A stretch of 64,000 nucleotides of DNA from Harriotta raleighana (taxonomy: Eukaryota): assembly GCA_050575255.1 (NCBI GenBank), contig JBNZDD010013657.1, forward strand, positions 2,626,352 through 2,690,351, in the 5' to 3' direction. Below are positions 526 to 62,942 of this stretch, piece after piece (within the stretch, counting starts at the first letter, position 1; the number at the start of each line of letters is the position of its first letter). Below the pieces are notes generated by a model. The model searched no databases, was not told where the DNA came from, and was given only the letters and a program-made list of their open reading frames with translations. Made by a program: the position numbers and the translations under genes.

Positions 526-806
526 GGTGTAAGACGACATTCCAATGTAATGCTGGGTATGCACTAAAAATACACTTAATTGACCCTTCATTCACTTGAA
601 AGGTGCTACATCAAATATACGTTTGTTTTTATTTTACTGGAATGAGGGAAGTAAAGAGACACAATCAATCATATATATGCTCAGGATTTCCTTAACTGTT
701 GATGATATAGCATCTCATCATCTTTCGGTAGTATTCAATATTCAGTACAATGGATAATGAGAAGATCAGCCTTGATGCAAAGTCTTCCATCTCTACTGTC
801 TTCCAG

Positions 807-990
807 GGACACCAGTGAACCGGATTCCGATCATGGCCAAGCAAGTATTAGACCTGTACATGTTGTATAAGCTGGTCACAGAGAAGGGCGGCTTGGTGGA
901 AGTCATCAACAAAAAGATTTGGAGAGAAATCACAAAAGGCCTCAACTTACCTACCTCAATTACTAGTGCAGCCTTTACGCTCAGGACACA
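807..990 (+). CDS. ARID3B: ARID3B internal coding exon, ARID/BRIGHT DNA-binding domain (upstream exons lie outside the window)
   Basis: Acceptor ttccag| and donor |gtaagt. Translates (G)TPVNRIPIMAKQVLDLYMLYKLVTEKGGLVEVINKKIWREITKGLNLPTSITSAAFTLRT(Q), the ARID3-family ARID core. Confidence 0.96.
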
Positions 991-1194
991 GTAAGTACAG
1001 CAACGCTGCCCCAACACAGCTCAGCCCTAATGCACCTCACTAAAGGTGCCCTGGGGGTGAGGGTGATGTAATCAGCATCCATTCAGTCCATTATTCAGCC
1101 AAGCAAAGAGTGGACCACTTCACTTACTTTAGTTTTAGTTTACTTTAGAGTTTACCAGGAGAAGGGGGAAGGCGTGACACACGTCTTGGCTAAG

Positions 1195-1380
1195 TCACAC
1201 GACTTGCTCCCTAAGATTTAAGAGGCCCTCCTGGCAGAATCAATTGGGTTACTTCAAAGGGAGACAGGTAAATACTGGGGGAACTAGTATATCAACGGAT
1301 ATGAAGAAATGACGGGATTCAAAAATTGGTTATGATCTAATAAACTGGTGGAACAGACTCGATGGGCTTCCTGTGCACAT
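1195..1380 (+). mobile_element. Degenerate CR1 LINE 3' fragment
   Basis: ttcaaagggagacaggtaaatac...tatgatctaataaactggtggaacagactcgatgggc resembles the CR1 3' end seen at 4280 and 44257. Confidence 0.5.
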
Positions 1381-1597
1381 GGGACTCTAAAAGTCTTGGG
1401 AATTCCATCTTGGGAATACCACTGAGGGGGCAGGTTGTGTCGGAGAAGAGTTTCCATGTGTCAATTTGGTCGGTTAACGGAACTGATTCCGTAATAGCAA
1501 ATCCCAACCAAGAAATGCTGCAAATTAGAGCCCAACGTTCTGAAGCGAAGCTCATTGTCCACCGTGTCTCTACACCGTTCTCTTGTTTCTCCGGCAG

Positions 1598-1845
1598 ATA
1601 TATGAAATACCTCTATCCGTATGAATGTGAAAAAAAGTCCCTCAGTTCTCCTGCGGAGCTGCAGGCAGCAATCGACAGCAATAGGCGAGAGGGCCGAAGG
1701 CCAAGTTACAGCTCTGCCCTTTTCGGCTACCCGACTAGCTCAGGCCACACTCTGTTGTCCACACCCAAACTTCATCTGTCTGCAATGAACATTCCTGCCA
1801 CCAATGGTACCCACTCCTCTCCGGGGAGGCAGGCCATCAAAAAAG
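1598..1845 (+). CDS. ARID3B: ARID3B coding exon, end of ARID / extended ARID
   Basis: Acceptor ccggcag|, donor |gtacat, phase compatible with the previous exon. YMKYLYPYECEKKSLSSPAELQAAIDSNRREGRRPSYSSALFGY...; SSPAELQ and RRPSYSS are ARID3B-type. Confidence 0.95.
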
Positions 1846-3157
1846 GTACATGCTTGTTCTTCTGTGTTGTTCCTACCTACCTCTGCCAATCGAATTTCAG
1901 CGCCTTGGGATGTCCTCCCAACGTGAAAGGTGATATACAAATGTAATTTGATTGCTGTTGTTGATGCTTCCCTCTTGAAAGGTGCTGTGTAAATTCTAGT
2001 TGATTCCAACACTTTTTCTAAATAGCGATTGAGGTCCACTGTTAATCAATAGAGTATTAATTACTGATTAGTTGATTATTAGCACAGACTCAGTGGTTTC
2101 ACTCATTCTCAAATCGTTATAATATTAATAATAATCCTTGCATTTGATGTTGCAATTTGCAGTCAATTCACTTTACACTATATTCTGTAAAACACTTTGA
2201 GACGTCTAGAAGTCGTGGGAAGTGCTATATTAAATACAAGGATTATTATTATTTCCCAATATCACTTTGTTGAGACGTCTCAAAAGACTTCACAGAATAT
2301 ACTAATGGACCGAATATTCTGTGTGTAAATTTTTCACCTGATTGTTACTTGCTTTAAGTTAGTCAGCAAGACACCGGAGAGGAAATCCCCTTTCCTCCTT
2401 CGTCCTCTCCCCGGCCCCCATTTTCTTGTAGATGTTAAACTCCAGCTAGGACATACACATGGGGAGATTGAAGTTACTCACGTTGAAGTTACTACAAGTG
2501 GAAAAACTTGCATTTGAACTGCAGACAAAATCTTGGTGTGAGGTTATATTCAAACAACAGCACCTTCCACAATGCAGAGTTCTCCCAATTCTAAAGCATT
2601 TGAGTGTGGGCTCAAGCCCTGCCGTGGGGTGCGAATCCACAAGCTTCTAACCCAGAGACGAAAGTGCTAGTAACTGGTGGTGGTGGTGCTGGCGCAAAAA
2701 GACTGTAGGGGACGGAGGCAGCTGCAGCCCAAATGTTCTCTATTCTGTCAGTAAAAGATTGCACGATGTAAGCAAAGTATCTTCGGCAGGAGTTAGCAGC
2801 TTGGAATGCATAAACACGGCTTTACACCTTTTTTTGTGTTTCTTTTCCCTCAATGCTTCGCTGTTCTGCATTCCAGCTGTTAACATGTCTTTTTCACACC
2901 TGGCTGGGTGGGTTCCGCAGCCAATTACAGGTGTGTGGCTTTGATCTGTCGGATAATCCTCTTTAATCCCTTTTATGTTTCCTGTTCATCTCAAGAGAAA
3001 AAATCCTCTTTTGGAGACTTTCAGATGATGCAATGGCATCAGTCCTTTTAACCCTAGTTACAGGTTAGTGAAGATTTGAAACAGTGCATTCCCTTCAAAG
3101 CTGCGGTGGGTCACAAATATGCACTGCAGCTCTGTAGGGGATTTCACATCAAGCTTG

Positions 3158-3479
3158 ATAATAATAATCCTTGCCTTTTGATACAGTGCTTTTCACATCT
3201 TCTAGACGTCTCAAAGCGCTTCACAGAATATACTGTAAAGTGAATTGACTGTGTATTTGTGGGCGAAATGCAGCAGGCAATTATGCACAGCAGAGTCCCA
3301 CAAACAGACATAGATTGAAATGACCAATTTTTTTATTATAGGTTATTTTTGGACGGATTATTATTAGTTGTGTGGGGTAGAGTAACCTTGCCCATGGTTT
3401 CACCCTGAACTGCCTGGATTCGAAACACAGGTCTCACATTTGTAAGGCGAGTGCTCTAACCACTGAGCAACAGGACTCC
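3158..3479 (-). mobile_element. Full-length young tRNA-derived SINE (type A)
   Basis: Reverse complement of GGAGTCCTGT(A)GCTCAGTGGTTAGAGC...GGGCAAG...TGTTTGTGGGAC...AAGCGCTTTGAGACG...GCAAGGATTATTATT, repeated many times in the window. Confidence 0.9.
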
Positions 3480-3570
3480 ACGTCCATGTTACTCAGACGC
3501 CCATTCATGTGATCGCACTTCGGGCCCAATATTCCATCTAATCTTATTCTGGAACTTTACTCTGGGGTGT

Positions 3571-3866
3571 GGAGTTCTGTAGCTCAGTGGTTAGAGCGCT
3601 TGCCTTACAAGCGAGATACCTGGGTTCAGTTTGCAGCAGGTTGAAACCTTGGGCAAGTTTCCTTACTCCACACGCATAATAATAAGCTTTCAACAAATAA
3701 TTTGTTCATTCCAATCCACGACTGTTTGTGGGACACTGCTGTGCACAATTGGCTGCCGCGCTTAGCCTACAAATATACAGTCAATTCACTTTACAGTATA
3801 TTCTGTGAAGTGCTTTGAGAAGTCTAGAAGACATAAAAAGCATGATATCAAATGCAAGGATTCATT
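3571..3866 (+). mobile_element. Full-length young tRNA-derived SINE (type A)
   Basis: tRNA-like head, CCTTGGGCAAGTTTCCTTACTCCACAC, Deu-like 3' part and tail. Confidence 0.9.
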
Positions 3867-4279
3867 ACAATCACATAGAAAGAAAGTCTGAATTCTACCT
3901 TACTCTGGAAGTTAATCTTTTTCAAGAACTTCATGAATTCTGGCTGCTAAATTCAAACTGAACTTTTAAGAATTTGCTTAAATTTGCTTACATTTTAAGA
4001 TAAAATTGATTCACTGGCAAAAACTAGTGTACTTTTAAGACAAGGGTATATTGTATATACAGTGCTGTAGCCTGAACAATTGCATTGCAGTAGGACGGGT
4101 GTTCTGAAATGGGCCAAGGTACCATCTTCATTCAAATCTTTCTCATGGTCATCTTCATATGAGAATGGTGGAAATCTGGAACTCACTCCCCAAAAGGCTG
4201 TGAATGCTGGATTCAATTTGGATCAAATTTTCATGACTGAGGGATGGGATATTGAGCAAATGCAGGTAATGGAGTTGAC

Positions 4280-4362
4280 CTGCAGATCAGCCATGATCTA
4301 ATAAAATGGCAGAATAGGTTCAAGTGGCTGAATGGCCTTACCCCTGTTCCTATGTTCCTATG
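4280..4362 (+). mobile_element. CR1 LINE 3' terminus
   Basis: gatcagccatgatcta...tgaatggcctta...ctgttcctatgttcctatg with the short terminal tandem repeat typical of CR1. Confidence 0.75.
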
Positions 4363-4439
4363 AATGACGGGGAGTGGTCTATTGCTTCATTGCTAAACAT
4401 TGCGCGACTCTTGACTGTTTGCGTTTCTTTCCGTCCCAG

Positions 4440-4691
4440 AAGAGGGAGCGACTAGCTCTGGTTCAGTGCCAAACCGGATCCACATCCCAGTCAGCCTCGC
4501 CAGCCACCACTCCGCAGCTCAGGCCATCACCCTGGAGCAGCTGAGGGAGAAGCTGGAGAGCGGGCAGCCGCCTGAGAAGAAGATGGCCAGATTTGCCGAG
4601 GAACAGCACAGGATCATGCAACAGGCCTTGCAGCAGAACCTGTTTGCTATGGCAACCCACATGCCTATGAACATCAGGATCAATGGTAAAG
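4440..4691 (+). CDS. ARID3B: ARID3B coding exon, REKLES domain (alpha part)
   Basis: Acceptor tttccgtcccag|, donor |gtaagg, phase 1-1. EEGATSSGSVPNRIHIPVSLASHHSAAQAITLEQLREKLESGQPPEKKMARFAEEQHRIMQQALQQNLFAMATHMPMNIRINGK contains the literal REKLES motif. Confidence 0.95.
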
Positions 4692-7309
4692 GTAAGGCCC
4701 ACATCAGTTTGTTGCTTTACATTTTGCGTCGGGAGAAGCCCCTTAGGGAGGGAGGGAGGGGCAACACGTTAAGCAAGTTTGGAGAGATGATCAAAGGCAC
4801 AGTTGAAAAGGAAGTTTCGTTCAGATGGGCCTCGGAGGAGGCGAGGGAGATAAAATTCCAAACCCGAAGAGAATTTTCCACGGTGTCCTGGCCAACAATT
4901 TCCAGATAAAATGAGTCTTTCGCTCCACATTTATTTGTGGGACTTTAGTTTTCTGAAGATTGCTACGGCTTTTGCCTACACCTGGAGACCTTTCATCGTT
5001 TTGGGTGCGACATCAGAACAAATATAATGAGTTATTTACTGATTTATTACTTTTTATTAAAGAGCGATCAGTTTCTTCTATTAGATTGCCTTCCCCTCCC
5101 TCCCTTCCCCCCTCAACAAGCACACCACCAGCTCCAGGCTCTCTTCCTACTGCTTTCTATCTTATCTCTTTGGGAGAATGACCTTGGAATGATATGTGCA
5201 CAATATGAGTTTGTTTAATATAGCGTAGTAATCTTTCACTCAGAACAAACACCAGTGTAGCTTCACATAGCGCAAAATAACCCACTGCTGGCACGCCTTC
5301 ATCTTTGTCCAGACAAACAGTCCCAGGAGTTTAAAGGCTGTGATGCAGCATTAGCTGTGATTATAAGGTACAACCAGAAACCTTCAAGGTAATATTATTT
5401 GAATAATGTAATTTAGTTGTCAGTTGAAAGGTATATTCTTGTAGAGCATTTCAGCCCCTCAGGCCCGGCAGCTTGATACTGCGTTGGGGGAAGGGTTGTA
5501 AGCCTTCAGTGTAAATTCAGACACAAACTCTTCTTTAACCCTTCGGCTGCCCGCAGGTCCACAGAGCCTCCTGCCTCCCCGGTCCCATCAGTTCTCTCCA
5601 TTTCCAGCTCACACTCTCTCAGAACAAATATATAACTTCTGGCATATAACTTATCACGTGGATCAAAATCAATCAATACTACAAACGTTAATAATAAACC
5701 TAGAGCCTCATCACCTTATCACTACATTGAGGTGTCTCAAAGCACTACGCAGGATTTGCCATGAAGAGTGGTGACTGTATTTGTAGGCGAACATCACAGC
5801 CCATGTTCACACAGATCTATCCCATAAACACCACGAAGTGAATGGCCAATTTTATTTGGGGGGGATTATTGGCCAAGGACATTGGGAGAAACTCCCTTCT
5901 TATAGTTAGCGCTGTACTTATTGCTGGCCGCTGTGTGGGTGTAGGGGACAGACAAACTCCAGGATTTTACTTTGTAAAACTGTCAGCAGTTACTCCTGAG
6001 TACTCTGTTTGTGTGCCTTGCGTTCTCCAGAATTGGGTAAACAGAATGCATCTCTCTGGGGAGAGAATGCATATTCCATGCGAGACCGTACGGAAATTTC
6101 CATGTGTAAGTGACATATATGTGGAGCTCTGTCTGGTTTGGATACTCTTAAGCAAAATGAGGGGTTTCCACATGAGTACAGACACCCAGCTGTCAAAAGC
6201 TAAAGAAGCTAAATAATGTTCCCACTGTCCCAAAAACCTCAAGTTTGGCATTAGTTTCTGGAATAAGAGATGCCGGTAACCTTGGGTTTCTGAAAAGGCG
6301 AGTCTGATCTGACCAAGTTACCTCGCTGAAAAAAGAGAAGACAGTGTTTAATAGTTAATGACATGTTACATGGATCTCACTGGACATGGATCTGCTTTGG
6401 TCAGGCAGTGGCGGTAACTGCGCTCATCGGGTGAGATATCGTAAGCTAGTTGAAGGTACAAGAATTATTTCCAGTATTAATAAAGAACTCAGTGGCTGTG
6501 TGATTGTTCTGCTGTCAATTTCAATGCGGAGCATACAAAACCTGGATGTCAGCGAATCGTTGATGCCCCTGTGTGGAGGCTTTGTGAAGCGCAGTTGATG
6601 GGAATCATTTCTCCCCCATTCTATTTTAATATAGTACAAAATTCCATTCGTAAAACGCCTTTCACATCTGGAGGTTGTCTCAAGGCGCTAATGTTTAGTT
6701 GTGACTAAGAAGTCTGATCGGTATTTAAAGAGAACGTTAAAAAATTGTATAATATAACCTACTCTGTTGTCCTGAAGTCACTCTGCTACACTGTTCTCTC
6801 CAGGGCGAAGTTGAGGCCAGATCTTTCTCATTCTCATATAACATTGAGAATTAAGAGGCTTCTACACACCCACTGATTTCCGTTCTACTCTTTCACCGGA
6901 CTCTTGGATGTTTCAACACAGAAGCAGGGCATTTAGCCTCAGTGGATGTGTGTTCCTATCTCTGCCCCCACCCACTCACATACAGACACACATCGGGAGG
7001 ATGTCTCAAGGCGTTCATGTTTAGTGTGACTAAGAAGACCAACCGGTATTTCAAGAGGCCGTTAAAAAATTGTACGCAAAGTAAAGCTTGGCATCAAATT
7101 AATCACTGTATGATTGACAAGAGATAACCATCAATCGGCAAGCAATAAATTGTGTAGTCGGTGTTTTAGGGATTTGCTTCACAGATCTAATGCAAAGTTG
7201 CACAATTATTAAGACCCTTGTACATAATATAGGCCATATGTCGTCCCCCCGTTACATTCTCGTGTTTAGGGCTTGAAACCCACACGTTATAATGACGCAT
7301 TAAAAAAAA

Positions 7310-7615
7310 ATCTTGCATTTGATATAGCGTTTTTCACATCTTATCGACGTCTCAAAGCGCTTCACTGAATATACTGTAAAGTGAATTGACTGTATATTTG
7401 TGGCTGGAACAAATTGTGCACAGCAGTGTCAATTACAGCCAATTGCGCACAGCAGTGTCCCACAAACAGACATGGATTGAAATGACCAATTTTTCTTATT
7501 GTGTTTTTTTATGGATAGATTATTATTAGGCGTGTGAGTAAGGAAACTTGCCCATGGTTTCGCCCTCATCTGCCTGGATTCGAGCACAGGTCTCACTCTG
7601 TAAGGCAAGAGCTCC
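7310..7615 (-). mobile_element. SINE type A
   Basis: Same family consensus on the minus strand. Confidence 0.85.
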
Positions 7616-7674
7616 ATAAATTGAAGATGTACATCAACATCCCTTGCTTCACCAAGACTATACCCAGTGTAATG

Positions 7675-7712
7675 ACACACACACACACCACACACACCAC
7701 ACACACACACAC
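7675..7712. repeat. (CA)n microsatellite, imperfect
   Basis: Direct reading. Confidence 0.9.
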
Positions 7713-7896
7713 ATCTTGACTATCATGTTGCTGCTCCAGATGATGAGAGGAGAAGCAAATTGTTTACCCAGTTTGCCTACAAATACACTAAGTCACTGGT
7801 TAACACTTGAGAATAAAATCTGGCGAAGGGCTTTCAGACGGCTCAACATCAATGTGATTGGGGGCTATTTCAAATGCAAAAGATTCAAAACAGTCC

Positions 7897-8087
7897 TGGA
7901 TTGAAATGACCAATTTATTATTTTTTGTGGTGATTATTGTCTGGCGTGTGGAGTAAGGNTTTTTTGTGGTGATTATTGTCTGGGGTGTGGAGTAAGGAAA
8001 CTTGCCCACGATTTCACCCTGCCTGGAATTGAACCCAGGTTTCTTGCTTGCAAGGCAAATGCTCTAACCACTGAGCTACAGGACTCC
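7897..8087 (-). mobile_element. SINE type A, 5' half (spans the N gap at 7959)
   Basis: ...aaggaaacttgccca...ctctaaccactgagctacaggactcc. Confidence 0.85.
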
Positions 8088-9344
8088 ACTCCCCACCATC
8101 CCTATTTTCTAGTTTCTAACCAATTGTCCTGGTATCAGATGGATATTAGCATTCAAACAAACTGCTGAGCTCAATTGAAAGTAACAGTTTACAGAAAAGA
8201 CCGATAAAACATCGAGTTGAGGGCTGCTATATTTTGGGATGAATGTGTTCAAGAAGACATGGAGCTAAACTTGAACTGACTAATACTGAGCCAAGCAGAG
8301 ATATTGCAACATAAATTCCAATGCACCTTTCAGAAATATTCACATCGCAACTTTCACCTGAGGATAAATCGGGAACCCGCCCACTAACACTCAGTATGAC
8401 TGGGCTCTCACTGTCATTAACCATATACAGTACTGTACATATTTTTTTGCCCGAGCTCTGCTTTGCATCGCTCCATCAACCATGATCTCTAGTGTGGTTT
8501 AGCATTATTTGATCTACAGGATAGGCTTAGCAGCAATTAGTGGTGAGGCCAATTGACTCATTTCACTTTCAAGCTACTCACACTGTGGAACCCATAATAA
8601 TAATAATTTCAAAGATAGGTAAAGACAAAGAGGTAGCCACATTCTTTTCAGTTGAGGAGCTATCAGTACCTGTGTCAGAAAAAAAATCTATACTCTAGCT
8701 CCTCCATAAGCATCTAGTTTTCACCTTCAAACCCTTTGAGCATCAGAGTCTTTGTACAGAGTATATTCTGTGTAGTGCTTTGAGACGTCGATCAGATGTG
8801 AAAAGCGCTGTATCAAATGCAAGGATTATTATTATTATACTTTGTGGGATTCGCAAATCTTCTTTATCATATGCTTTCTCCATGAGCTCAGCTAAAACTC
8901 CATTAGCATTGCCGCGCTTCACCTACAAATATACAGTCAATTCATTTTACAGTATGTTCTGTGAAGAGCTTTGAGACATTGATAAGATATGAAAAACGCT
9001 AGATCAAATGTAAGGAATATTATTATTTCTAAGTCATTGGTCTTACCAACATCACTCCCTGCACACTACCCACAACAAGCGGCCACTCATTGCTAAAAGT
9101 TCACAGTGAGATCCTACATGAATATCAGCCGTTATGTCAGTGAAATTGACATGAAGCAGAATAATTTTTTAAGCTAAATGCTGTGGTCAAGTCTACTCAT
9201 CTGATGCACTGGGAAGGGGAAAAGTGGTGATTAGCAATGCAAACATCACCCAGTCAAACATATATTACTAGATAATAAGCACAATTTGATTTGGGTGCAC
9301 ATTATGATATGTCACACAGATGGATAACACAGATGTGCTCCACA

Positions 9345-9724
9345 CCATTAGAGTTCTATTGTCTTCAAGTCAAAAGTCAGTTCAACATCCTGGTCCTCAT
9401 CCTCGAAGCCCTCCATGGCTTCACTTTCCCATACCTCGGCAACCTCCTCACCCCCTACCAAGCTTTCCCCCACCTCACCCACTCCACCATTGGCGAGCAG
9501 ACCATCAGCCACTCTTCCACTATCCTCTGGAGCTCCATCCTGCAGTCTCTCCCCTTCATCCCATCCCTTGCCTCCTTCAAGACCGACCTCAAGGCCTTCC
9601 TCTTTGACCGTGCTTTCAACATCCTTGCCCCCCTGACCTCCACCCTCTTCAATCCCAACCCCCAGCTCGCATCTGAAATACTGTTTGTCCAGCGCCTTGG
9701 GACATGCTACAGATGTGAAAGGCT
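9345..9724 (+). mobile_element. L2-clade LINE 3' fragment (ORF2 C-terminus plus tail)
   Basis: ORF 9291-9731 contains FNILVLILEALHGFTFPYLGNLLTPY...LWSSILQSL...SLASFKTDLKAFLFDRAF, a typical L2 ORF2 end, followed by cagcgccttgggac...tgtgaaaggc. Confidence 0.85.
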
Positions 9725-10237
9725 GAGTTAGCTAACCTGAGCCAGGCGAACCAGTGAGGGAGATTCTTCAATCAGCCTTAGTTTTCCAGGTTTACGGGCA
9801 AAAAAATTAGCTTGGGTTCCACATCTTATCACTTGTGCCCCCTGCTGGACAGTACACAAATGCAAATTTTAAGGGAGGAAGAGATGATGTTCTCTCTCAC
9901 AGTCACAGTGCAATTCCTCACTGGTATCTATTATGTGCTGATTTATGGGATTCCCCGATAAAGAAAACTAAGTTGCATTCTACTAACATATGGGATCAAT
10001 GTTCTGACTCAATCTGCTCTAAGAGCAAGAATTCCCATGTCCCCAGTTATTGACAAGATACCCACTCGAATGCTTATTGAGGAATCAAATTAGAAACTGC
10101 CACATAGCGGTCCATCCAGTGACAGCCTGGCTTAGTTGGTAGCACTCTTGCCTCCAAGTCAGAAGTTTATGGGTTCAGTAGTTTGAACTCAACAGTCCAG
10201 ACTGTAGCCCCGATATAGTTGAAGACGCTTTGGATAA

Positions 10238-10462
10238 CAGCAACAACAAAATTACATTTGTAGAGCACCTTTCACATCAGGGGGACATCCCAAGGCGCTG
10301 GACAGTCTGTGGTCAGGACCCGAGCATGGGGGAAGGGGCAGGGTTGGGATGAGGAAGGGCGGAGAGCTAAGACGACGGCTGAAGGCACAGACGAAGAAGG
10401 GGGTCTTGAGATCGGTCTTGAAGGAGACAAGGGAGGGAGCAAGGTGAAGGGATTGTGGGATG
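10238..10462 (-). mobile_element. L2 LINE 3' end
   Basis: Minus-strand IPQSLHLAPSLVSFKTDLKTPFF followed by a tail ending in (TTG)n. Confidence 0.85.
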
Positions 10463-11246
10463 GATAATCTATAAACCAATATCCTATCTGACCCTGTGTA
10501 AGTGGCTCTTAAATATCCAATGACACTATTTGAAAAGAGAAGAGAGATTCTCCTGGTGTCCTGGCCAATAATCATTCCAAGTAATAAAAAAAACTCAGTT
10601 TCAATGCAGCAGTTTAGTGCGTCACTAACTCTTTTTTATGTACAATCAGCACGTCCTTAGAATCAATCAAGTCACTCTTCGTAATCAAGGTGAAGAGGCT
10701 CTTATGAATTTTCAGCCCAGTTTTGTCAAAGTCCATTTGCTTTCTTGGGAGTGAGGGGAGGTTTTCATTTGAACAAATATCTTTGTCTGTCCCTTTGAAA
10801 CCCGTTTTGTTGGCAACATGTAGCGTACTGTTTGAAATGTAGGCAACAGCATTGATCTGCCCTTTCCCTTTACGGGACTCAATGAAGCACTCAATGAAGT
10901 ATTCATGTCCGTTGCATTGAGACCAGAAGCAGCTGCTGTAACCTCTGTTCTTTCGGAGCCCTCCTCAAACGGGGCCATAGGTCAGACTGTCACTGGTTTG
11001 GAGATGGGACTGGGCCGCGGTTATGTGGCAGGCTTGCCTTTGACAGGATGGCAGTTGTCAGAATGACAGATTACTTTCTGTCACAGGGGTGAGCAGTCAG
11101 TTCACTTCCTCCCCTCCTCCCTCTCCCACCCCTTCCCCCACCATTGCCCCTCCCACTCCAGGTCCCCTATTTGATATCTCCTCACTTGCACACTCTTAGC
11201 ACAGTTTCACACATTCATGTGGGGTATAACTTGAAAAAGAAATTAT

Positions 11247-11590
11247 GATAATCCTTGCATTTGATACAGCTCCTTATCATGTCGTGGAGACGTCTCAAAG
11301 CGTATCACGGAATATACTGTAAAGTAAATTGACTTTATATTTTGTGGGTGTAAAGCAGCAGCCAATTGTGCACATCAGTGTCAATAAACAGTCGTGGATT
11401 GAGACACTAATTGTTATTAGTTATGTTTTGAAAGGATTATTACCCCCAAAAAGCGATCCGCCAATCAACTAACAACCAGGTTCCTATTCACTACCAGGTA
11501 AACAGGGGCAAGGAAACTTGCCTACGGTTTCGTCCCGGCCCAGGAATCGAACCCGAGTGCTCTCGCTTGTGAGGCAAGTGCTCTAACCAT
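11247..11590 (-). mobile_element. SINE type B (longer CORE-like body)
   Basis: Same head and tail as type A, plus the internal segment ...cctgtttacctggtagtgaataggaacctggttgtagttgattggcggatc... (reverse complement). Confidence 0.8.
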
Positions 11591-11693
11591 TATGGGTGTC
11601 ATATCATATCATGAGCGATGAGTCACAGGACAAGTCTCTTTAACGTTGGTCAAGTGTTAACGTCCTGCCTACCAACCTTTGCTTTCTCTGCAG

Positions 11694-11783
11694 ATGATAG
11701 GCAGGAAATTGCATTGAACTTGTCAACTAATGGTATCAGCAGCATCAATATGTCAATTGAAATTAATGGCACCGTCTATACAG
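11694..11783 (+). CDS. ARID3B: ARID3B coding exon, REKLES-beta
   Basis: Acceptor tttctctgcag|, donor |gtaaga, 90 nt, phase 1-1. DDRQEIALNLSTNGISSINMSIEINGTVYT(G). Confidence 0.94.
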
Positions 11784-12522
11784 GTAAGATTTCGATAGAT
11801 ACCCTTTCTTATCATAACCTTGACAGGTCAAGTGTCAAGGACGACAGGTCACTGAAACATCCCTGAGGCAATGCCTCACAGGGAGGAGGGAGTGTGAATG
11901 GTTCACAGACACATGGATCATTGGGGCAAATTGTTGGACATTTGTGGACTTCTTAAATACAGCCATCCAGCCAGTTGGGGATCTGGAAATTGGTTCTGAG
12001 TGAGATACAATCCCGTAGGCCTCAAACCTTTACTTGGTAAAGTTTGCCAGTCCCCTCCCGCCAGAATCTTATAGGCCATACGACGCCTCTGTGAGGCGTT
12101 GTATGGCCAGAGATGCTGTCCTTTGGATGAGAAACATGATGCCTGTCAGGTATGTACAGAGGTCCATCTGCTGTAGTTCACAGAAAAGCAGGAGTTCTCC
12201 TCTTGTTTGGGTAAACATTTCTTACTTGTCTGAATTCCTCACCGTGCAAACTCCAGGTATTGTTGATTTGCAACTCTTAAACCTGTGTCCTCTTGTTTTA
12301 CTTTCTTGATAGAGTACTGATCTGAGTTTACTTTCACATTCTCATTTTAAAAATATTCTACACTTCTGTGGGGCCCTCTCCAAGCAATCTTCTCTGTAGA
12401 CTGAAGAGCACTTGTCCAATCGTTAGCCCATTCCTCTTAACACTGAGAGATCATCCTCATTGCTCTGCACTGTCTTCCACAACCATGTGTTTTTATTAAC
12501 CCTGGTTATTCTCTCTCACTAG

Positions 12523-12662
12523 GAGTGCTGTTTGCTCAGCGACCAGCCATGCAAGTGATCGCAGGGCCAAGCAGCAGTAGCTCCGGCTCGCTGAGCACAT
12601 CAAGTCCTACCTCGGTCAAAGGTCACACCTCTGCGGAGCCTTCAACCAGCGGCTCCCCCTGA
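12523..12662 (+). CDS. ARID3B: ARID3B terminal coding exon, stop TGA at 12660-12662
   Basis: Acceptor ctctctcactag|. GVLFAQRPAMQVIAGPSSSSSGSLSTSSPTSVKGHTSAEPSTSGSP*, matching the recalled ARID3B C-terminus (GVLFAQKP...SAEPSTSWSL) rather than ARID3A or ARID3C. Confidence 0.93.
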
Positions 12663-54042: not shown

Positions 54043-54073
54043 ATGGAAAACGCAGCATCATTTGGACCTGCAG
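54043..54073 (+). CDS. Synaptotagmin-like gene, predicted first coding exon (MENAASFGPA)
   Basis: ATG GAA AAC GCA GCA TCA TTT GGA CCT GCA G|gtaggc. The phase-1 donor fits the phase-1 acceptor at 55910, and there is an in-frame stop upstream. Confidence 0.7.
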
Positions 54074-55909
54074 GTAGGCTCTGATATTTGAAGCAATATA
54101 GAGGCAATTTAAGCCTATTAAGTTGGAATAGCATTCTGATAGTCGCTTCCATAGATTTCTTTCCATTTTAGCAATAATAGTTTGCTGTTGTGAGCTCCAT
54201 TTTCTATCCTCCCCTGTTGATACCGAGGGCTTCCTTATTCATTCTCTTTTGATTGAGAAAGCTGGTTAGCAAACCTGCTTCGAACTAGCCATTTTGAGTG
54301 AGTGCAAGGTTTGACCCAGAGGAATTGATCTTCTTATTCTTAACCCCCCCCCACCCCGCCCCCACCCCACAACCCCCCCCCCCATTCCCTCCCAAAAGCA
54401 ATTGACGAACCCACTTTCCTTTCCCAACGAGGAAAAACACTGAAGGGTCTAATTTGCAAAGACTCTCATCCAAAAGACAGCACCTCCAACAATTCAGCCC
54501 CTTCCCCACAACCACACGGGGGCAATTACAGTAAGTGAACATTTATTTTCTCCAAGGCAAGTTAAAAGGCAAAAGGCAATAAGCCACCCTTTCTATTTTT
54601 TCTGCGTTTGCCTGCGGAAACACTGCACCTTCTGAGAAACAGGCCATTGTTGGTGGTTGAAGCTTGATACGGCTGTAAGTAAGATGCCCAGGTCAACATG
54701 AGGGATCAGTTTCTGCAATGACTGAGGCTCCACTGACTTGTCTATTCATCACAGCTGTTTGTTGGCCTCGGGAGGATCAGATCTAAAGGGCGACACAACA
54801 CCCTTTCTGGACGTTCAGTAGCTTTAAATAGGAGTGAAAAGGGATCATATAGTCTTAGCCTGATAGCTCTCTGCATACATAAGCTGGGAAACACATCTCA
54901 TTGTTTGGAGAGATCACAGTGGGGCATTGCAACAAGTGAAGATCACCATCAAATATTATTTCATTGCAAACCAGCAGTGTCTTTGGCCAATGTCCCAAAG
55001 AATGAGATGTCTTTGGAGTGAACGCCCCAAAGAATGCAATGTTTTCCTAAAGCAACTGTTTAGCTACTTCAACAGACATGTTGAACTGCAAGGATGTGTG
55101 TTCAGCAAAGTAGTTACCAAAATGGCATTGAAGAATTGATTGGGAGCTGTGGGCTCAAAGCCTTGAAAGGTTGGAGTAATTCCTGTTGTTTCTTGAGACA
55201 CAGATTTCGAGTAGACAGCACTCATGTGAGGTGCTAGGACCCACACAGATACCATGGCCCTGGTAATCATAATAATATTCCTTACATTGGTACAATATAG
55301 CACATTTTATGATGGAAGGCTTCACAGGATATACAGTTAAATGTAGTGACTGTGTGTCTTGCGTGGTGATGCCTCATTCTGTGCTGGAAACAACAACAAC
55401 ATGTTACATTTACTTTGCACCTTTCACATGAGGGGGATGTTCCAAGGCGCTCGACAGTCAGGAATTTGGACCCAAGATGGAGGGAGCAATCAGAAGAGGT
55501 GAAGTGCAGGGAGAATAGGGTTAGGAGGACACTGTGATGCTGTGATGGGAGGCTGGTAGGGTGGGTGTGGTGGAGGGATATAATACTACTACCGTACTAC
55601 TAAAAATAGTAATAATCCTTGCATTTTGATCACTTTGTGTCATAACGCTTCTCAGAATATACCTTAAACTAGATTGATTTTGTGGAGAAAACACAGCATT
55701 CAGTAGCAGTATCCCACAAATGGTCATGTTTTGAAAGATCAAGTTATTATTATTAGTAGTGAGGTCAGAATGGCCTAAGGAGCCTCCTTCACTGAACTGA
55801 GCTATTGATCTTGTGAATCTATCTGTACGAATTGCAACGTGGCCACACAATGAGGGGGTTCTTTCCTTCGCTAGTGACGTACAGTTTACTGTTGTCTGTT
55901 TGTGTTCAG

Positions 55910-56844
55910 TGCACCTACAAGTCCTCCTTGGCGCAGGCCTGGCCTTTCTTTGCTTCTGCCTGATCATCAGCTGTGCCATATGCTGGAGGAAAGGCAAGCC
56001 CAGCAACTGCAACAACGACAAGGAGCAAACTCCGGAACAGATCGTGTTGGAGCCCAGCGCATCGTTGCCCGGGCAGACGAGCGAGCCTGTCAAGCAGCAG
56101 TATGAGGAAGTGGAAGGGGAGGTGCTGGACTACCCAAGGTACGGACCTGATGATGACCTGCCTGTCTTTGAGCCTGAGAGCATATACAAGCGCAACCTCC
56201 ACAGCAGACCATCCCTGCCCAGTCTGCAGGGCAGAAATTCCTTAACTACCATCCCAGTGGTCCAGAAACAAAGCCTGGCAGCCAAAACCAAGAGGATCCT
56301 CGAGCGACGTTGCACTGTGTCAGGTGATGCGTCGGTGTACAACGAGCACACCAAGCTGCGGAGAGCGAGTGCCAAGCTCTCCTTCTCACTACTGGGTCAC
56401 TCCCAGACCATGCCAGATGACCTGGCAGGCATGAAATCCAAACTGAGACCCGCGCTGCACTTCACGCTATTTTACTCGGCCTACGAGGTGACTCTAACTG
56501 TCGCTGTCATCAGCGTCGCCAACCTGCCCAAAAAGTTTGGCTCCGGCTGTGACTCCTATGTCAAGGTGTACCTGCTGCCGAGGTTCCTTGAACCACAGCA
56601 GACTGCCATCCACAGGAAGAGCCTGAATCCAGAGTACAGGGAGTGCTTTCAGTTCTCAGGGTATACTCTGGATGAGGTCAAGGGCTTCACGCTCTGCTTT
56701 TCCACGTACGTCAAGGAGTTCCACAGTTTGAAGGACACGTTTGTTGGGGAGGTCCTCTTCCCCTGTGAGCAGGGAGAATGGAAGCCTGACGTTCCCTCCA
56801 CCTACATCAAGGAGCTGACTGCCACCAAGACCAAACTCAAAAAG
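55910..56844 (+). CDS. Synaptotagmin-like gene exon 2: transmembrane helix, linker and entire C2A domain
   Basis: Acceptor tttgtgttcag|, donor AAG|gtgaga, inside the 366-aa ORF. Hydrophobic VLLGAGLAFLCFCLIISCAICW followed by basic RKGK. C2 signature LHFTLFYS...ANLP...DSYVKVYLLP...RKSLNPEYRECFQF. Confidence 0.92.
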
Positions 56845-58136
56845 GTGAGAAGCTGGAAAATGCTGTTGTGGTTAAACCTCGCACATCACGCACCCGTCCT
56901 GTACCTGAAATGACACGTGACTCCTGAATATGGGTTGAGCTTGGGTGAGGACAACATGGGTCCTCAAAGAGACATCTCTTACACACACACAACACACACA
57001 CAACACACACACACAACGCTGAAAATGAATGTACACGAGCACTTTCAGATGCGGAGAATCATAGGATCCTACGGTACAGAGAGAGGTGATACAGCCCATT
57101 ATTCCTGTGCCAGCTGTTTAGAAGAGCTATCCAATTCGTCCCACTCCTCGCTCTTTCCACGTAGTATAACAAGTTAAGGTGCTGACTCATACTATAATAG
57201 CCAATGATAACAATAGATGTTCATAATAATAATCATTGCATTTCATGTGGGATTTTTCACATCAGGAGGACATCTGACAAAGCGCTTCCCAGGATTTGCT
57301 GTAAGGTGTAGTGACTGAGACGCCGACAGTTGTGGAGGGTGCTATATAAATCCAAGCTGTTGTTGCTGTTGTTGACTGTGCACTTTGAAGACGGTGAAAC
57401 AACAACAATAACAGCAACTTTAGAGAGCTTATCAAGCACCCTTCACACAGGGTAGCTTTCCTTATTATTGTTATTTATTACAGTGGTCAGGAGCAGAAAT
57501 GCTGTTTGCAAATCTGATTGTCCAGCGATATTAGGATGGTTCCCGATGGCCAATAAATCCCCTGGCTTCGGCACTGAGGGCTTTAACACACAGACCTACC
57601 TACCACCGTCAGCTCAAAGAGACAAGATCAATAAATATGCAGTTCATGAGGTCTCCACATCTTGAGGGATAAAGTGAAGCGATTCACGGGTGCTCTTTTG
57701 ATTCACAGCTCATTGGAAAATATTAGTCCGTGAGTAATTACAACTCAGAATAAGACAGGGATTTAATCACACTGTGGCCTGAGCTGCCTAATTTAAACAG
57801 AATAATTCTCAACACACACTTGATACCGAAAGCATTTAAGCACAGTCGAAGAATTAATTTGATTCATTCAGGGGCAAATCAGGTTATTTCACTTTTTTGT
57901 TACAGCTTTCTCCTGACTCCATCAGCTATTTTATCCAATGATGGATTTAAACTATATTTAATTGTAACCCCACAATCCCAAAGATCAGCTTGCTGTGATG
58001 CTTTAGTTTTGGCTAAAACATAGCAACCAAATACTTAATCACTTCTTTGCATTAACTTTCACGTATGGAATTGTTGAATTTGATTCACATTTGCATTAAA
58101 AATGAGCAACAAGTCTTGCTTATCTTCCAAACGTGT

Positions 58137-58440
58137 GGAGTTCTGTAGCTCAGTGGTTAGAGCACTTACCTTACAAGCAAAAGACCTGGGTGCGATTCCA
58201 GGCAAGGCGAAACCTTGAGCAAGTTTCCTTACTCCACACGCCTGATAATAATCCCTAAAAATAATTTGATCACTCAATCCACGACTGTATGTGGGACACT
58301 GCTGTGCGCAATTGACTGCCGAGTTTCACCCACAAATATACTGTCAAATCACTTTACAGTATATTCTGAGAAGTCCTTTGAGAAATCTAGAAGACATGAA
58401 ACGTGCTATATCAAATGCAAGGATTATTATTATTATTATT
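58137..58440 (+). mobile_element. Full-length SINE type A in intron 2 of the synaptotagmin-like gene
   Basis: Family consensus. Confidence 0.9.
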
Positions 58441-59796
58441 GGGAACAAGACTTGTTTGGGGGGCAAATTTGGCAGATGATCTGGTGATTTCTGGTGCTAT
58501 TTGAAACAGTCACCACAGACAATTGCCCACCATTCAGTCACATTTTCTTATTTTTTTCCCCCAAACCTCTGCAAATCCCTAATTTTTAGTTCCTTTCCAA
58601 GTCCTTCCTTGTTGGTTTTATTCAGCCCAGAAAAGCTGTTTAATCTTGCAATTACTGCACTGTATTTTTGCAGAGTTATGGGGCTCTTTAATCAAGTCAG
58701 TGCAGATGGAAAACACTTCTGCCTTGTGTCTTGAAGACAGCATTCAGTAGGCTGGTGAAGAATGAGGCTTCATTTCTTTTGAAGCAAAGCTCCTTATCTA
58801 TTTACACCCACACTGGTCTCGGTTTGGTCACATCTTCCTGTTCCAATGTCTAGATAAACCAGACCCAAAACAACTGTAGTCCTGAATGTAGAAATATGTC
58901 ATGTAGAAGCCATCAATGCACTTTGATAATAATTACCTGCGATGCACTTTGATGCATTCTAACATTATAATTATCACAGGACGTTATAACATCAAAGCAC
59001 AGTGTCAGTCTTCATGATGATGTTGGATGTTATTGCGAGCGCCTTTACAAAACGGCAACATTCGTGGAAAGAATTCTAAACTCCATTGCAGTGAATCCTC
59101 AGCAATCTGGTAGAGAAAAATCGTTTAATGTTTCAGGTCTGATGAAAAGGCATGCCGTTCTCTTTGTCACATATTGATTGGTGTGCTTTTATTATTAAGC
59201 ACCACGCTATATATCTTTGGGGGAAATCCCATCTGGTGAATGTCCGCCTAACACGCCATTAAAAGGATTTACAACTTGTGCACTAAGAATCTACATCTGT
59301 TATTATGTTAATATCGGTAACATCAAACAGTGACATTTGTGCAGAGCAGAAAGGATTCAGTCCTACGTCAACCCATATTTAATTTCATTCACTGAGTAGG
59401 TCTGACAGACATGACACTCAAAGAGAGATTCATGGCCGTTCATCAGCGGTAGCAGGAGCTTTTAATCCTCGCTTATTAGTTGTCACTTTGACGTAGTTTG
59501 CTGCTAATTTTGATTAAATTACTTTACAGTAGCAACACCTGCGTCAGTCACATTAAAGCAAGGGCATCATTGCAAGCTGTGTGTGCTTAACACTGTACTT
59601 ACTGTAAAATGTTTAAACCTTCAGCAAGCTTGCTGTGCTTCCTCTGCAGTTGGAGATAAGCCATATTGTTAAAATAATAATAAACCTCACATTTGATATA
59701 GTGCTTTTCACATCTTCTAGATGTATCAAAGCGTTTCACACAATATACTGTAGAGGGAATTGATTGTATATTTGTGGGTGAAAAATGGTATTGTTC

Positions 59797-59816
59797 TTGG
59801 CTAAGATCAAGTATAG
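59797..59816 (+). pseudogene. Short U2 snRNA 5'-region fragment
   Basis: TTGGCTAAGATCAAGTATAG versus U2 TTGGCTAAGATCAAGTGTAG (19/20 match). The rest of U2 is absent. Confidence 0.55.
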
Positions 59817-59864
59817 AGAAACATAGACACTTTGAGGCCTGGGACCTGGACCCATTTTAAGAAA

Positions 59865-60175
59865 CAGCAACAACAAATTGGATTTATTTAGCATCTTTCA
59901 CATCAGGAGGAGATCCCGAGATGCTGGTCCATCAAGGGTTAGCACTCAAACTAGAGGCAGGAGTCAAGAAGAGTGGAGAGTAGGGTTTGGTAGGAAGATG
60001 ATCGAAGGCACAGATGAAGAGGAAGATCTTGAGAGGAGACAAGGGACGGAGCTCCGGGATGGAGTGCCAGAGGCTGAGTCTAGAAAGACTAAAGGCCTGA
60101 CCACCAATGGTGGAGTTGGGGATGTGAAGGAAATAGGAGGACAGAAGGGTGGATATTCTGGAAGGCTGAGATCAA
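59865..60175 (-). mobile_element. L2 LINE 3' fragment
   Basis: Reverse-strand L2 tail (caacaacaaa...tttcacatcaggagg...gaaggcacagatgaagagg...ggagtgccagag). Confidence 0.7.
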
Positions 60176-60848
60176 GTGGGCGACAGGAGCTTCTTGTGTT
60201 CCCTCTTGCGATATGTGCTGTTTTCTGATCCCAACTAGGTCAGTACTGAACACATTGCAATTTGACCTTGGTACACGAGGTAAGAGAGAGATAGAAAATC
60301 ACCCAAGGATACTGCTAGAAAATAGTTAATGTGGTAAAATATTGCAGTTTCAAATAATCCCCTGCATAGCAGGGCTCAAGTACTTGGTTTATCCAACACT
60401 ATGGATGTCCTCCCAATGTGAAAGGTGCTACATAAATGTAAATTGTATCATCTTGCATGAAAAATAATTTTCCAAAATCTGCTGAAGTGTTTCATTGGCA
60501 ATCTTATCCTATAATCCCTCGCTACCGATTCATTGATCAGTCAGAATAATCTCTGTGTTTCAGCACGCACAGTACTTTGAAGCTCTTTATGAGATCCTCT
60601 CTTAACTTTCTCTGCAAGTATTCAATCAAAGTGGAAGTCAATAAATTCTGATGTACAGCCATGAAGCTGTGTTGATAAGAATATAACTTTATGTTCTGTT
60701 AACGCTCGGCCAGTGAAAGACACATAGTCTCACCACTTCACAGTGATTCCTGTGAAGTGCTTTGAGGCATCTCGCTGATGTGATAAGGTTGCCATATCAA
60801 ACACAAGGATTATTGACACTCAATATCAGTTGACTATATATTTTTCAG

Positions 60849-61017
60849 TGTCTCAGTTCCCTGGATGTGATGACCTCTACGGGCAGTTTCGCACACCCCA
60901 AGACTTTGGGTCAAATCTTTATTCTATTGCAGTATCAGACCCTAGCCAACAGGATCAAGGTCATGGTCCGGAAGGCAGAAAATCTAGGCAGGATGACCCG
61001 TATGCCTGGATCACCCG
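60849..61017 (+). CDS. Synaptotagmin-like gene exon 3: C2A-C2B linker and start of C2B
   Basis: Acceptor tttttcag|, donor G|gtgagt, phase 0-1. CLSSLDVMTSTGSFAHPKTLGQIFILLQYQTLANRIKVMVRKAENLGRMTRMPGSP resembles the LGxIxxxLxY...RLxVxxxKAxNL start of C2B. Confidence 0.92.
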
Positions 61018-61965
61018 GTGAGTCACTAACGTTAGAGAATTCAAATGCAATAGTTTTTGTATTGAGGTTAATCGACTGGCGGAATGAGTTACAGATAGGG
61101 GTGTGACAGGTCAGGATTCTGGACTCTTTTCACAAACAGCTCATGCTGTGATGGGAAGATGGTAGGTTTGGTTTTCTGCAAGGATATCAAGTGGTCTTCA
61201 TCCTAACCAGAGTAGTGATGTACAGCCATGAAGCTCAGTAGAGAGGGCGGAGGGAGAGATAGAGTCAAAGCTGTGTAGTGGGAGTGGGTGGGTGGTGGAT
61301 CATGAGGGAGAGTTAAGGGGGGGCATAGTGGTAGATATGGAAGAGGTGGCTCAATTTTAGATTCGAGGAAGTCCAGCATTTCCTCACGGTAGGAATTGGA
61401 GGAGAGGATGAGTGAGCAAGGACAAGTTTTAAATAAGATCTTGCGGAGGGAGAACATATTTTCAATCTCAAGTATTTCACTCTCATATACAAATAAAACA
61501 CTGACAAACATTAGACTTAAATAATTTTTGCTAACTATTAAATGGGTTTTTTGTTTGTGAACTTTTGTCGGGTTTTACAGCACTTTTCGGGGGGAAATAA
61601 TTAGCCCTCTAGGGTATTTGACTCAGAAGTTATTATTATTCTAGTAGTTGATAACATGTTAAGGGAGTAAATTAACACAATAATAAATGTTATTAAACGC
61701 AAGAAACATTACCTTCTTGCCTTAGAGAAGCCCCCAAACTGTGATAGGTCTCATCACTATGTAGTTAGTAAAGTACGTTCATAATGTAGTTAGTAAAGTA
61801 CATTCACACCATAGTACAAATGCAAGGTTTGACATTGGGCTCCGTCACTATTAAGTGCTCCAAGATACAGTCCAGCGTGAACACAAATTGCTGTTGTTTG
61901 ATTAACCAGAGAGATCCACGTTCCCTTTGTTTACTTACACTGCAGTCTGTATTGATTCCTTACAG

Positions 61966-62132
61966 ATCATTACGTCATTATACACCTTTACCAAGATGGG
62001 AAAGTTGTGGCAACAAAAGAAACCAAAACAGCCAGCAGCTATAACCCGGTCTGGAATGCACCATTTCTGTTTGATATCCCCCCTGGTGACATTGAAAGCC
62101 GGCAGCTTTCACTGGAGTTTATAGTGATGCAG
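61966..62132 (+). CDS. Synaptotagmin-like gene exon 4: C2B core
   Basis: Acceptor ttccttacag|, donor CAG|gtatgg, phase 1-0. DHYVIIHLYQDGKVVATKETKTASSYNPVWNAPFLFDIPPGDIESRQLSLEFIVMQ contains the NPVWNxxFxF C2 motif. Confidence 0.92.
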
Positions 62133-62792
62133 GTATGGACACCAGCAAGAGCCATAAATGGTTATTGTTAGGCCCGGTTTTATTACGATATAGAAAATAA
62201 AAAATGTAGTTTAAACACTCAATGGGAAAGGTTTACACCAGTGAAAGAGACCATTCAGCCCATGATAGCCAAGTTGGTGTTAGCTTCCTTGCTCGATCTT
62301 TGATCACATTTCCATCAGTCATCATTCCCCTCCCCACCTTACTTGGCTCCCAACCTCAGTTCAGGTTACCTACCAGTTTTCGTACGCACCTTGGGACATC
62401 CTTGGGTTGTGAAAAGTGCTGTAAAAAAGGTGAATTTGTGGTATAATGCACTTCAAATCTAATTTCTCTGCTTATTCCCCAAACTCTTTTACATTATTCC
62501 TCCTCAAGTATTTATCACATTTTAAATGCTGTTATGGATTTGCTTCAAATTCCACGTTCTAACAACACTGTTTGTGAGAAAATAAATCTGCTAACCGTCC
62601 CCTTTTTTTTCTTTTACGTCCCCACCGACATGAAAGGCACTAATTTGTTCTCGTCATTATGGTTTTATTGACATTCCTCTTTGTGAGGTTAATCTCACAA
62701 AATTAACCTCACTACTAGTAGTGAGGTTAATCTCTCTCCCTTCATTTCCCCTATTCAGTACCATTCAATGTCGCTGTCTGTTTAATTTCCAG

Positions 62793-62942
62793 AGTCGCAT
62801 TTACACCCGAAACTGTGTCCTTGGCCGTTTGTCCATTGGCGGGACCGCTGGAGAAATGGGAAGGATGCACTGGAAAGAAATGTGCAGTCGGGGTCATGTG
62901 GAGTCAGCTCGATGGCACTCCATCTACCCAGACATCTCGTAG
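62793..62942 (+). CDS. Synaptotagmin-like gene exon 5: end of C2B and stop TAG
   Basis: Acceptor tttaatttccag|. SRIYTRNCVLGRLSIGGTAGEMGRMHWKEMCSRGHVESARWHSIYPDIS* carries the synaptotagmin HWxEM...ARWH terminus. Confidence 0.92.
   Translation, partial: SRIYTRNCVLGRLSIGGTAGEMGRMHWKEMCSRGHVESARWHSIYPDIS

Follow-up and report, generated by a model that had tools for sequence, protein, structure and literature searches.

A cartilaginous-fish Syt18 with few calcium ligands, encoded beside an ARID3 gene in the chimaera Harriotta raleighana

Which synaptotagmin is encoded next to an ARID3 gene in the chimaera Harriotta raleighana, and could it respond to Ca2+? The gene lies in a 64,000-nucleotide stretch of contig JBNZDD010013657.1 (assembly GCA_050575255.1, positions 2,626,352 to 2,690,351 of the forward strand; hereafter, the window), in which a first-pass annotation had proposed a divergent synaptotagmin. 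We conclude that this gene is almost certainly an intact cartilaginous-fish (holocephalan) orthologue of Syt18 and—judging from its sequence—that the protein is very probably no Ca2+ sensor. Syt18 was already named and aligned in 2010; new here is a cartilaginous-fish member of a known, uncharacterised group. In the accessible part of the defining paper (Craxton 2010; PMC2823689), Syt18 and Syt19 are introduced as groups missing from mouse and human and as "completely uncharacterised".

The C2A+C2B (C2AB) phylogeny places the window protein firmly among Syt18 proteins. In an IQ-TREE analysis of 37 C2AB rows, 22 Syt18 rows share one side of a branch with 100/99 support, apart from SYT2, 7, 9, and 11b, and a FastTree of 126 rows, from 220 with both C2 domains and including those 37, agrees. 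Named Syt18s that group with the window protein in this set come from Anolis (P0026) and Lottia (P0143, deposited at NCBI as 'synaptotagmin 18'), along with P0123; the window protein itself falls in a vertebrate set with 100/100 support, on a terminal branch of 0.027. Read by eye, the Anolis row of Craxton's Syt18 alignment, in the accessible part of PMC2823689, matches P0026. When Anolis Syt18 was searched against the genome (38 candidates scored), window exons 2–5 were the best match (E 9.9e-85 to 5.5e-16), and the next locus followed at E 2.8e-11 and 32% identity. Over C2AB, the window protein is 93% identical to Callorhinchus, 82% to shark, 76% to coelacanth, 64% to Anolis Syt18, and 40–42% to marsupial proteins, compared with 32–37% to SYT2, 7, 9, and 11b. 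Of 1175 candidates in a search with exon 2, 100 proteins reached E<=1e-10, headed by Callorhinchus milii (89%) and continuing through sharks, rays, coelacanth, lungfish, amphibians, reptiles, birds, and ray-finned fish, with no named mammal among the 100. The intron phases (1, 0, 1, 0) are compatible with the legend of Craxton's Syt18 file 37 (phases 0 and 1 only) and with the phase-1 start of the Anolis and Xenopus entries, as given in the accessible part of PMC2823689. The earlier guess of a syt18/syt19-type gene was right, and the type is narrowed here to Syt18; the statement that none of SYT1–17 is orthologous is supported by the 100/99 branch, in trees without SYT8 and SYT12–17, and indirectly by Anolis, for which the accessible part of PMC2823689 lists syt1–syt19 as separate genes.

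Spliced in silico, the five exons (all with AG/GT sites) give 1452 nt and 483 aa with no internal stop, bearing out the intact, phase-compatible model first proposed, whose quoted loop and motif strings could all be located in the protein. The introns measure 1836, 4004, 948, and 660 bases, and GC content at third codon positions (GC3) is 0.65 in the coding sequence versus a GC content of 0.41 in the introns. Two of the four exons scanned match the Pfam C2 domain (exon 2, E 3.3e-13; exon 4, E 8.4e-6), and tblastn aligns exons 2–5 to orthologues at 49–94% identity. Exon 1, the sole exon without direct tblastn support, is the least certain. It ranked first of 779 candidate ATG-to-phase-1-donor first exons by likeness to shark and ray N-termini (six distinct 10-aa sequences from gene models that are themselves predictions) and its donor site ranked thirteenth of the 779, a slight over-count that includes a few whose second codon is a stop; the Callorhinchus RefSeq model has a different start.

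To place the Ca2+-ligand sites we used what we take to be the Syt1 ligand numbering, anchored here on a structure-match alignment, and compared reference SYTs and 27 invertebrate rows with 79 vertebrate orthologues, each 430 aa or longer; 20 shorter rows were dropped and the mis-spliced Callorhinchus A0A4W3IIA6 was replaced by another Callorhinchus model (P0246). In C2A, sites 1 (F220) and 3 (V278) are acidic in 0/79 vertebrate orthologues. D225 is Asp in 42/79 and Gly or Asn in 30/79, site 4 (E280) is acidic in 63/79, and site 5 corresponds either to D286 by HMMER (acidic in 76/79) or to T287 by MAFFT (0/79). C2B keeps D379 alone (70/79), with sites 1, 3, 4, and 5 acidic in none; here, site 3 is Gln in 78/79 vertebrates and Lys or Arg in 24/27 invertebrates, and site 4 is Lys or Arg in 76/79 and 19/27, respectively. 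With two or three of five acidic ligands in C2A and one of five in C2B, the window protein falls short of the five per domain found in Ca2+-sensing SYTs (SYT1, 2, 3, 5, 6, 7, 9, and 10), and no vertebrate orthologue exceeds three in C2A or one in C2B. We infer from this pattern that Syt18 binds no Ca2+. The first-pass view of a probably Ca2+-independent protein was, on this ligand loss, well judged, and its claim that only the second Asp is kept in each domain holds for C2B but not for C2A, where D225 is accompanied by E280 and possibly D286.

Basic residues of the top loops, by comparison, are kept almost throughout (K218 in 78, K279 in 78, K285 in 77, R370 in 78, R373 in 77, and R440 in all 79 vertebrate orthologues). 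The net loop charge is +1 in the window C2A (family median +3) versus −2 to −5 in five reference SYTs, and +2 in C2B versus 0 to −2. Conversely, the beta-4 flank, or polybasic strand, carries a charge of +1 versus +6 to +9 in reference SYTs; the C2B polylysine patch has been replaced, as first described. Taking the Syt1 interface residues (polybasic strand and primary-interface R398/R399) from the accessible part of PMC7498268, window Syt18 retains none of K313, R322, K325, and K327, and shows H469/V470 at the R398/R399 positions, each basic in 1/79. Two other positions are consistently acidic: E397 (77/79) and E471 (79/79). Near the C-terminus, the WHSI motif keeps W and H in 79/79, with I (55), L (20), or V (4) at the +3 residue—it is present, as first described, and is a conservative variant of WHxL and not a loss.

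The protein has the layout of the synaptotagmin family, namely a single N-terminal transmembrane (TM) segment, a variable linker, and tandem C2A–C2B. Its one hydrophobic segment (Kyte-Doolittle [KD] 19-mer 2.6 at residue 16) comes with a cluster of cysteines (C25, C27, C32, and C35; 81–98% conserved in the 79 vertebrates) that is likely palmitoylated. C2B is the better-kept C2 (mean identity 0.68, versus 0.51 for C2A and 0.32 for the linker). Within the linker, the islands QQYEE (Y75 98%), RxSL (S121 98%), and RRxT (T146 94%) recur in 0, 1, and 4 of the 27 invertebrates, respectively, and are thus vertebrate-specific; by motif shape, QQYEE is a possible YxxPhi sorting signal and the other two are possible basophilic-kinase sites. 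A structure model of the shark orthologue, used as the UniRef Callorhinchus model is mis-spliced at exon 3, has a TM helix, a disordered linker, and two C2 domains, with most C2 blocks at a predicted local distance difference test (pLDDT) score of 90–98. Its C2B superposes on that of Syt7 (Z 21.4; root-mean-square deviation [rmsd] 1.5; 137 aligned) and, more broadly, on the C2Bs of Syt7, Syt1, and Syt4 (Z about 21, rmsd 1.3–1.7), so that both C2 folds are predicted to be intact.

What might such a protein do? We consider it reasonably probable that Syt18 is a membrane-anchored, mostly ligand-less binder of acidic membranes that would act independently of Ca2+, as a constitutive tether or brake and not as a fusion trigger; for the loop-mediated tether or brake role taken by itself, the sequence leaves the chances about even. 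Anchored as a palmitoylated type-I TM protein, Syt18 would grip acidic lipid without Ca2+ through the conserved Lys and Arg of its C2 top loops, mainly those of C2B, and would tether or brake vesicle traffic without the SNARE contacts of Syt1. It might be sorted through its YxxPhi and WHxI motifs and controlled by linker phosphorylation. A precedent is Syt11, described in the accessible part of PMC12819558 as a non-Ca2+-binding synaptotagmin with affinity for acidic lipids; Ca2+ inhibits it, and it is a competitor of Syt1. A bolder version, which we hold only tentatively, is that Syt18 may be an ancient bilaterian synaptotagmin whose C2B pocket was charge-reversed (Arg for Asp); as a tether it would be permanently 'on', perhaps inhibited by Ca2+, and would not use the Syt1 SNARE interfaces. 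Bony vertebrates would have added a second-segment hairpin, and placentals would have lost the gene.

The main rival takes C2B for a protein-binding adaptor or scaffold, in which the KETK strand, E366, E471, and the top-loop Arg residues recruit a sorting or endocytosis partner. The neutralised polybasic strand and the conserved acidic residues would suit this role, as would the retained YxxPhi-like and WHxI motifs and, in the accessible part of PMC2196445, an internalisation signal in the C-terminal region of Syt1. However, four top-loop Arg/Lys kept in 76–79 of the 79 orthologues sit on the face with which other C2 domains bind membranes, half of the lysines tied to the control of AP2 and endocytosis in Syt1 are gone (K326 remains, K327 is Glu), and no partner is known; we regard an adaptor as possible, though unlikely.

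Several observations tell against Syt18 as a Ca2+-independent membrane binder, or against its placement. Ca2+-independent lipid binding by Syt1 is attributed mainly to its K-rich motif (PMC12819558, accessible part), and because Syt18 is without this motif, its own lipid binding may be weak. The isoelectric point (pI) is neutral for the window C2A (7.0) and, at 9.59, lies within the reference range for C2B (8.8–9.9), so what speaks for membrane binding is the location of the charge, not whole-domain pI. E295-to-K and Y338-to-V are common to SYT7, 9, and 11 and hence not diagnostic. As to the placement, the trees are without SYT8, SYT12–17, and SYT19, take their columns from a Syt18 profile, and are midpoint-rooted, and exon 2 alone gave no significant match to Lottia Syt18 in pairwise BLAST, leaving C2B and the tree as the basis for the link to invertebrates. 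Finally, C2A retains up to three acidic positions (D225, E280, and D286), which leaves room for weak Ca2+ binding in this domain. That these would hold one Ca2+ and make Syt18 a low-affinity, Ca2+-regulated synaptotagmin strikes us as improbable: 34/79 orthologues do hold three acidic C2A positions and position 286 is nearly always acidic, but sites 1 and 3 never are, D225 often gives way to Gly or Asn, and the C2A of teleost and frog Syt18 is degenerate. Moreover, the accessible part of PMC12819558 attributes the lack of Ca2+ binding in Syt4/11 to a single Asp-to-Ser change in C2A; in our alignment, this change falls at the third site.

Compared with Syt1, Syt2, and Syt7, Syt18 shares the fold (C2B Z about 21, rmsd 1.5–1.7), the topology, and the WHx(L/I) end, but is without at least six of the ten acidic ligands, the polybasic residues, and R398/R399. 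With Syt4 and Syt11 it has in common the type-I anchor, the tandem C2 domains, the lost third C2A Asp, and the proposed Ca2+-independent lipid binding, yet it forms a separate clade; Syt11b has three acidic C2B sites, a K-rich strand (+7), and R398/R399, whereas Syt18 has one, +1, and neither Arg. Membership of the Syt4/Syt11 group was rejected, as SYT11b sits across the 100/99 branch from the Syt18 rows. Relative to the Syt18s already described (Craxton 2010; zebrafish syt18a/syt18b), the window protein shares the clade, the TM and linker motifs, the C2B signature, and—as in Tetraodon—the ARID3 neighbour, but it comes from cartilaginous fish, a group missing in Craxton's set, has a well-formed C2A where those of teleosts and frog are not, and is without the 48-aa hydrophobic extension of many bony-vertebrate models. 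Syt19 is likewise missing from mouse and human and uncharacterised, but differs in sequence throughout, retains an acidic C2A loop 3, and in stickleback adjoins myosin and NLRC5 genes, not ARID3; in a by-eye comparison, Craxton's Syt19 rows were unlike the window protein, with no common motifs beyond generic C2, and a Syt19 identity was rejected.

Syt18 amounts to a natural experiment in what a synaptotagmin does once its Ca2+ ligands, its polybasic strand, and R398/R399 are gone. It departs from the generality of the K-rich motif, which the accessible part of PMC12819558 treats as common to Ca2+-binding and non-binding Syts, and the chimaera copy, with its short branch and two well-formed C2 domains, is a good template for biochemistry.

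In databases, Syt18 orthologues are labelled synaptotagmin-1-like, -2, -4, -5, -6, -7, -9, -10, -11, or -15, rabphilin-3A, ARID3A-like, and transmembrane O-methyltransferase; with at least eight different wrong names in use, expression data from fish, amphibians, reptiles, and marsupials are probably assigned to the wrong gene. These automatic labels, together with best solved-structure matches to Syt7, Syt3, and Syt1, would speak for a fast-evolving orthologue of mammalian SYT4, 5, 7, 11, or 15. We judge this very unlikely, given that the labels disagree within one clade, that C2AB identity is 64% to Anolis Syt18 but 32–37% to SYT2, 7, 9, and 11b, and that the tree support (100/99, against SYT2, 7, 9, and 11b) and the separate syt1–19 of Anolis both oppose it.

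How widely is the gene kept? When 1.84 billion representatives were searched with a profile, relatives (20 rows named among them) came up in hemichordate, amphioxus, sea urchin, crinoid, annelid, scorpion, crustacean, priapulid, and marsupials, and the range indicated for Syt18 extends beyond fish to molluscs, annelids, arachnids, crustaceans, echinoderms, hemichordates, amphioxus, and marsupials. A koala query gave 29 matches among 2652 candidates, with seven marsupial rows that include full-length koala and bilby proteins of 457–460 aa, and no placental or monotreme match in this word-limited search of lengths 147–471 only. The full-length marsupial copies overturn the idea of a non-mammalian lineage, and the invertebrate and marsupial relatives that of a fish-type gene; a partial opossum Syt18 already appears in the accessible part of PMC2823689. 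In the literature on syt18, syt19, synaptotagmin XVIII, syt18a, and syt18b (subscription journals not covered) we found no functional paper and, beside Craxton 2010, only a passing mention of syt18 in the accessible part of PMC11098836. What this record adds is of modest value: a charge-reversed pocket, persistence in marsupials, and orthologues filed under wrong names. Although family members in several lineages have shed C2A or both C2 domains and marsupial copies sit on long branches, a decaying or unexpressed window gene is very improbable, and a pseudogene was rejected on the open frame across five exons, the short end branch (0.027), and the 76–93% C2AB identity to coelacanth, shark, and Callorhinchus, while a 444-aa ray-like orthologue covering exons 2–5 on one 1822-base contig would imply a spliced transcript.

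Across the window and 200 kb flanks, the gene order is ARID3 (+), syt18 (+), a coiled-coil gene (−), a LAMMER/CLK kinase (+), and EDC3 (−); given the CLK/EDC3 neighbours, the ARID3 gene would be ARID3B. In the accessible parts of two sources, a human 15q24.1-24.2 deletion list has ARID3B, CLK3, and EDC3 and no SYT (PMC2954843), and a chicken list has EDC3, CLK3, and ARID3B consecutively (PMC12649552). A CLK gene at the locus and a human list without SYT fit the initial suggestion that human CLK3, not a SYT, lies by ARID3B, implying loss or relocation. On the simplest reading, Syt18 would have been lost in placental mammals from between ARID3B and CLK3; this rests on database matches and the human gene list, no search for gene relics having been made. 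The Tetraodon model P0417 fuses ARID3 to syt18, and ARID3 adjacency is not part of Craxton's Syt18 definition in the accessible part of PMC2823689.

The multi-exon coiled-coil gene between syt18 and CLK spans contig bases about 2,694,000-2,735,000 on the minus strand, has no Pfam match above cut-off, and has 'si:ch73-389b16.1' as its best Atlas lead, with low recognition; besides syt18, it may be another gene that the human interval lacks. Single Ns occur at window positions 7959, 16462, 35201, 41013, and 46339, some flanked by duplicated sequence; they are probably scaffold joins and could hide sequence between ARID3 and syt18.

Table 1 Features of the window synaptotagmin gene and its neighbours (window positions).
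Feature	Position	Strand	Basis
Upstream ARID3 gene, 3' exons; ARID-domain frame 776-991, frame 4415-4906 (which we take to be REKLES)	776..12659	+	synteny marker
Coding exon 1, 10-aa lumenal N-terminus, phase-1 donor	54043..54073	+	rank 1/779, shark/ray N-termini
Coding exon 2, TM helix, disordered linker, and entire C2A	55910..56844	+	splice sites, Pfam, tblastn
Single TM helix, about aa 13-36, ending in Cys cluster	55915..55986	+	hydrophobicity, alignment
Linker islands QQYEE, RxSL, RRxT	56095..56316	+	alignment; possible roles from motif shape
C2A, sites F220 / D225 / V278 / E280 / D286-or-T287; basic K218, K279, K285	56446..56832	+	alignment
Coding exon 3, C2A-C2B linker, C2B start including loop 1 (R370, T372, R373)	60849..61017	+	splice sites, tblastn, alignment
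Coding exon 4, D379, neutralised polybasic strand (62001-62030), Q434	61966..62132	+	Pfam, alignment
Coding exon 5, C2B loop 3 (R436, R440), H469/V470, WHSI (62913-62924), stop	62793..62942	+	alignment
CLK-type LAMMER kinase exons	downstream of syt18	+	flank scan
EDC3 exons	downstream of CLK	-	flank scan

Public Callorhinchus models of this gene are faulty: UniRef A0A4W3IIA6 runs on through the donor of exon 2 and leaves out most of exon 3, and of two further models (P0246 and P0020), one is flagged low quality and one begins at an internal Met before C2A.

Many bony-vertebrate Syt18 models (P0015, P0024, P0026 [Anolis], P0047, P0109, P0339, and P0434) begin with a strongly conserved hydrophobic extension of 48 aa, in which a second TM segment is predicted (KD19 2.2–2.5). 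It had 144 matches, none from cartilaginous fish, bird, or mammal by name in the 120 listed. Its profile found nothing in the window (best E 1.1) or the 200 kb flanks, with controls at 64–80 bits, a single-protein genome search (no control) found nothing, no Pfam family passed the cut-off for the extension, and Atlas features gave no usable match. Where present, it would create a two-segment anchor (hairpin), atypical of synaptotagmins.

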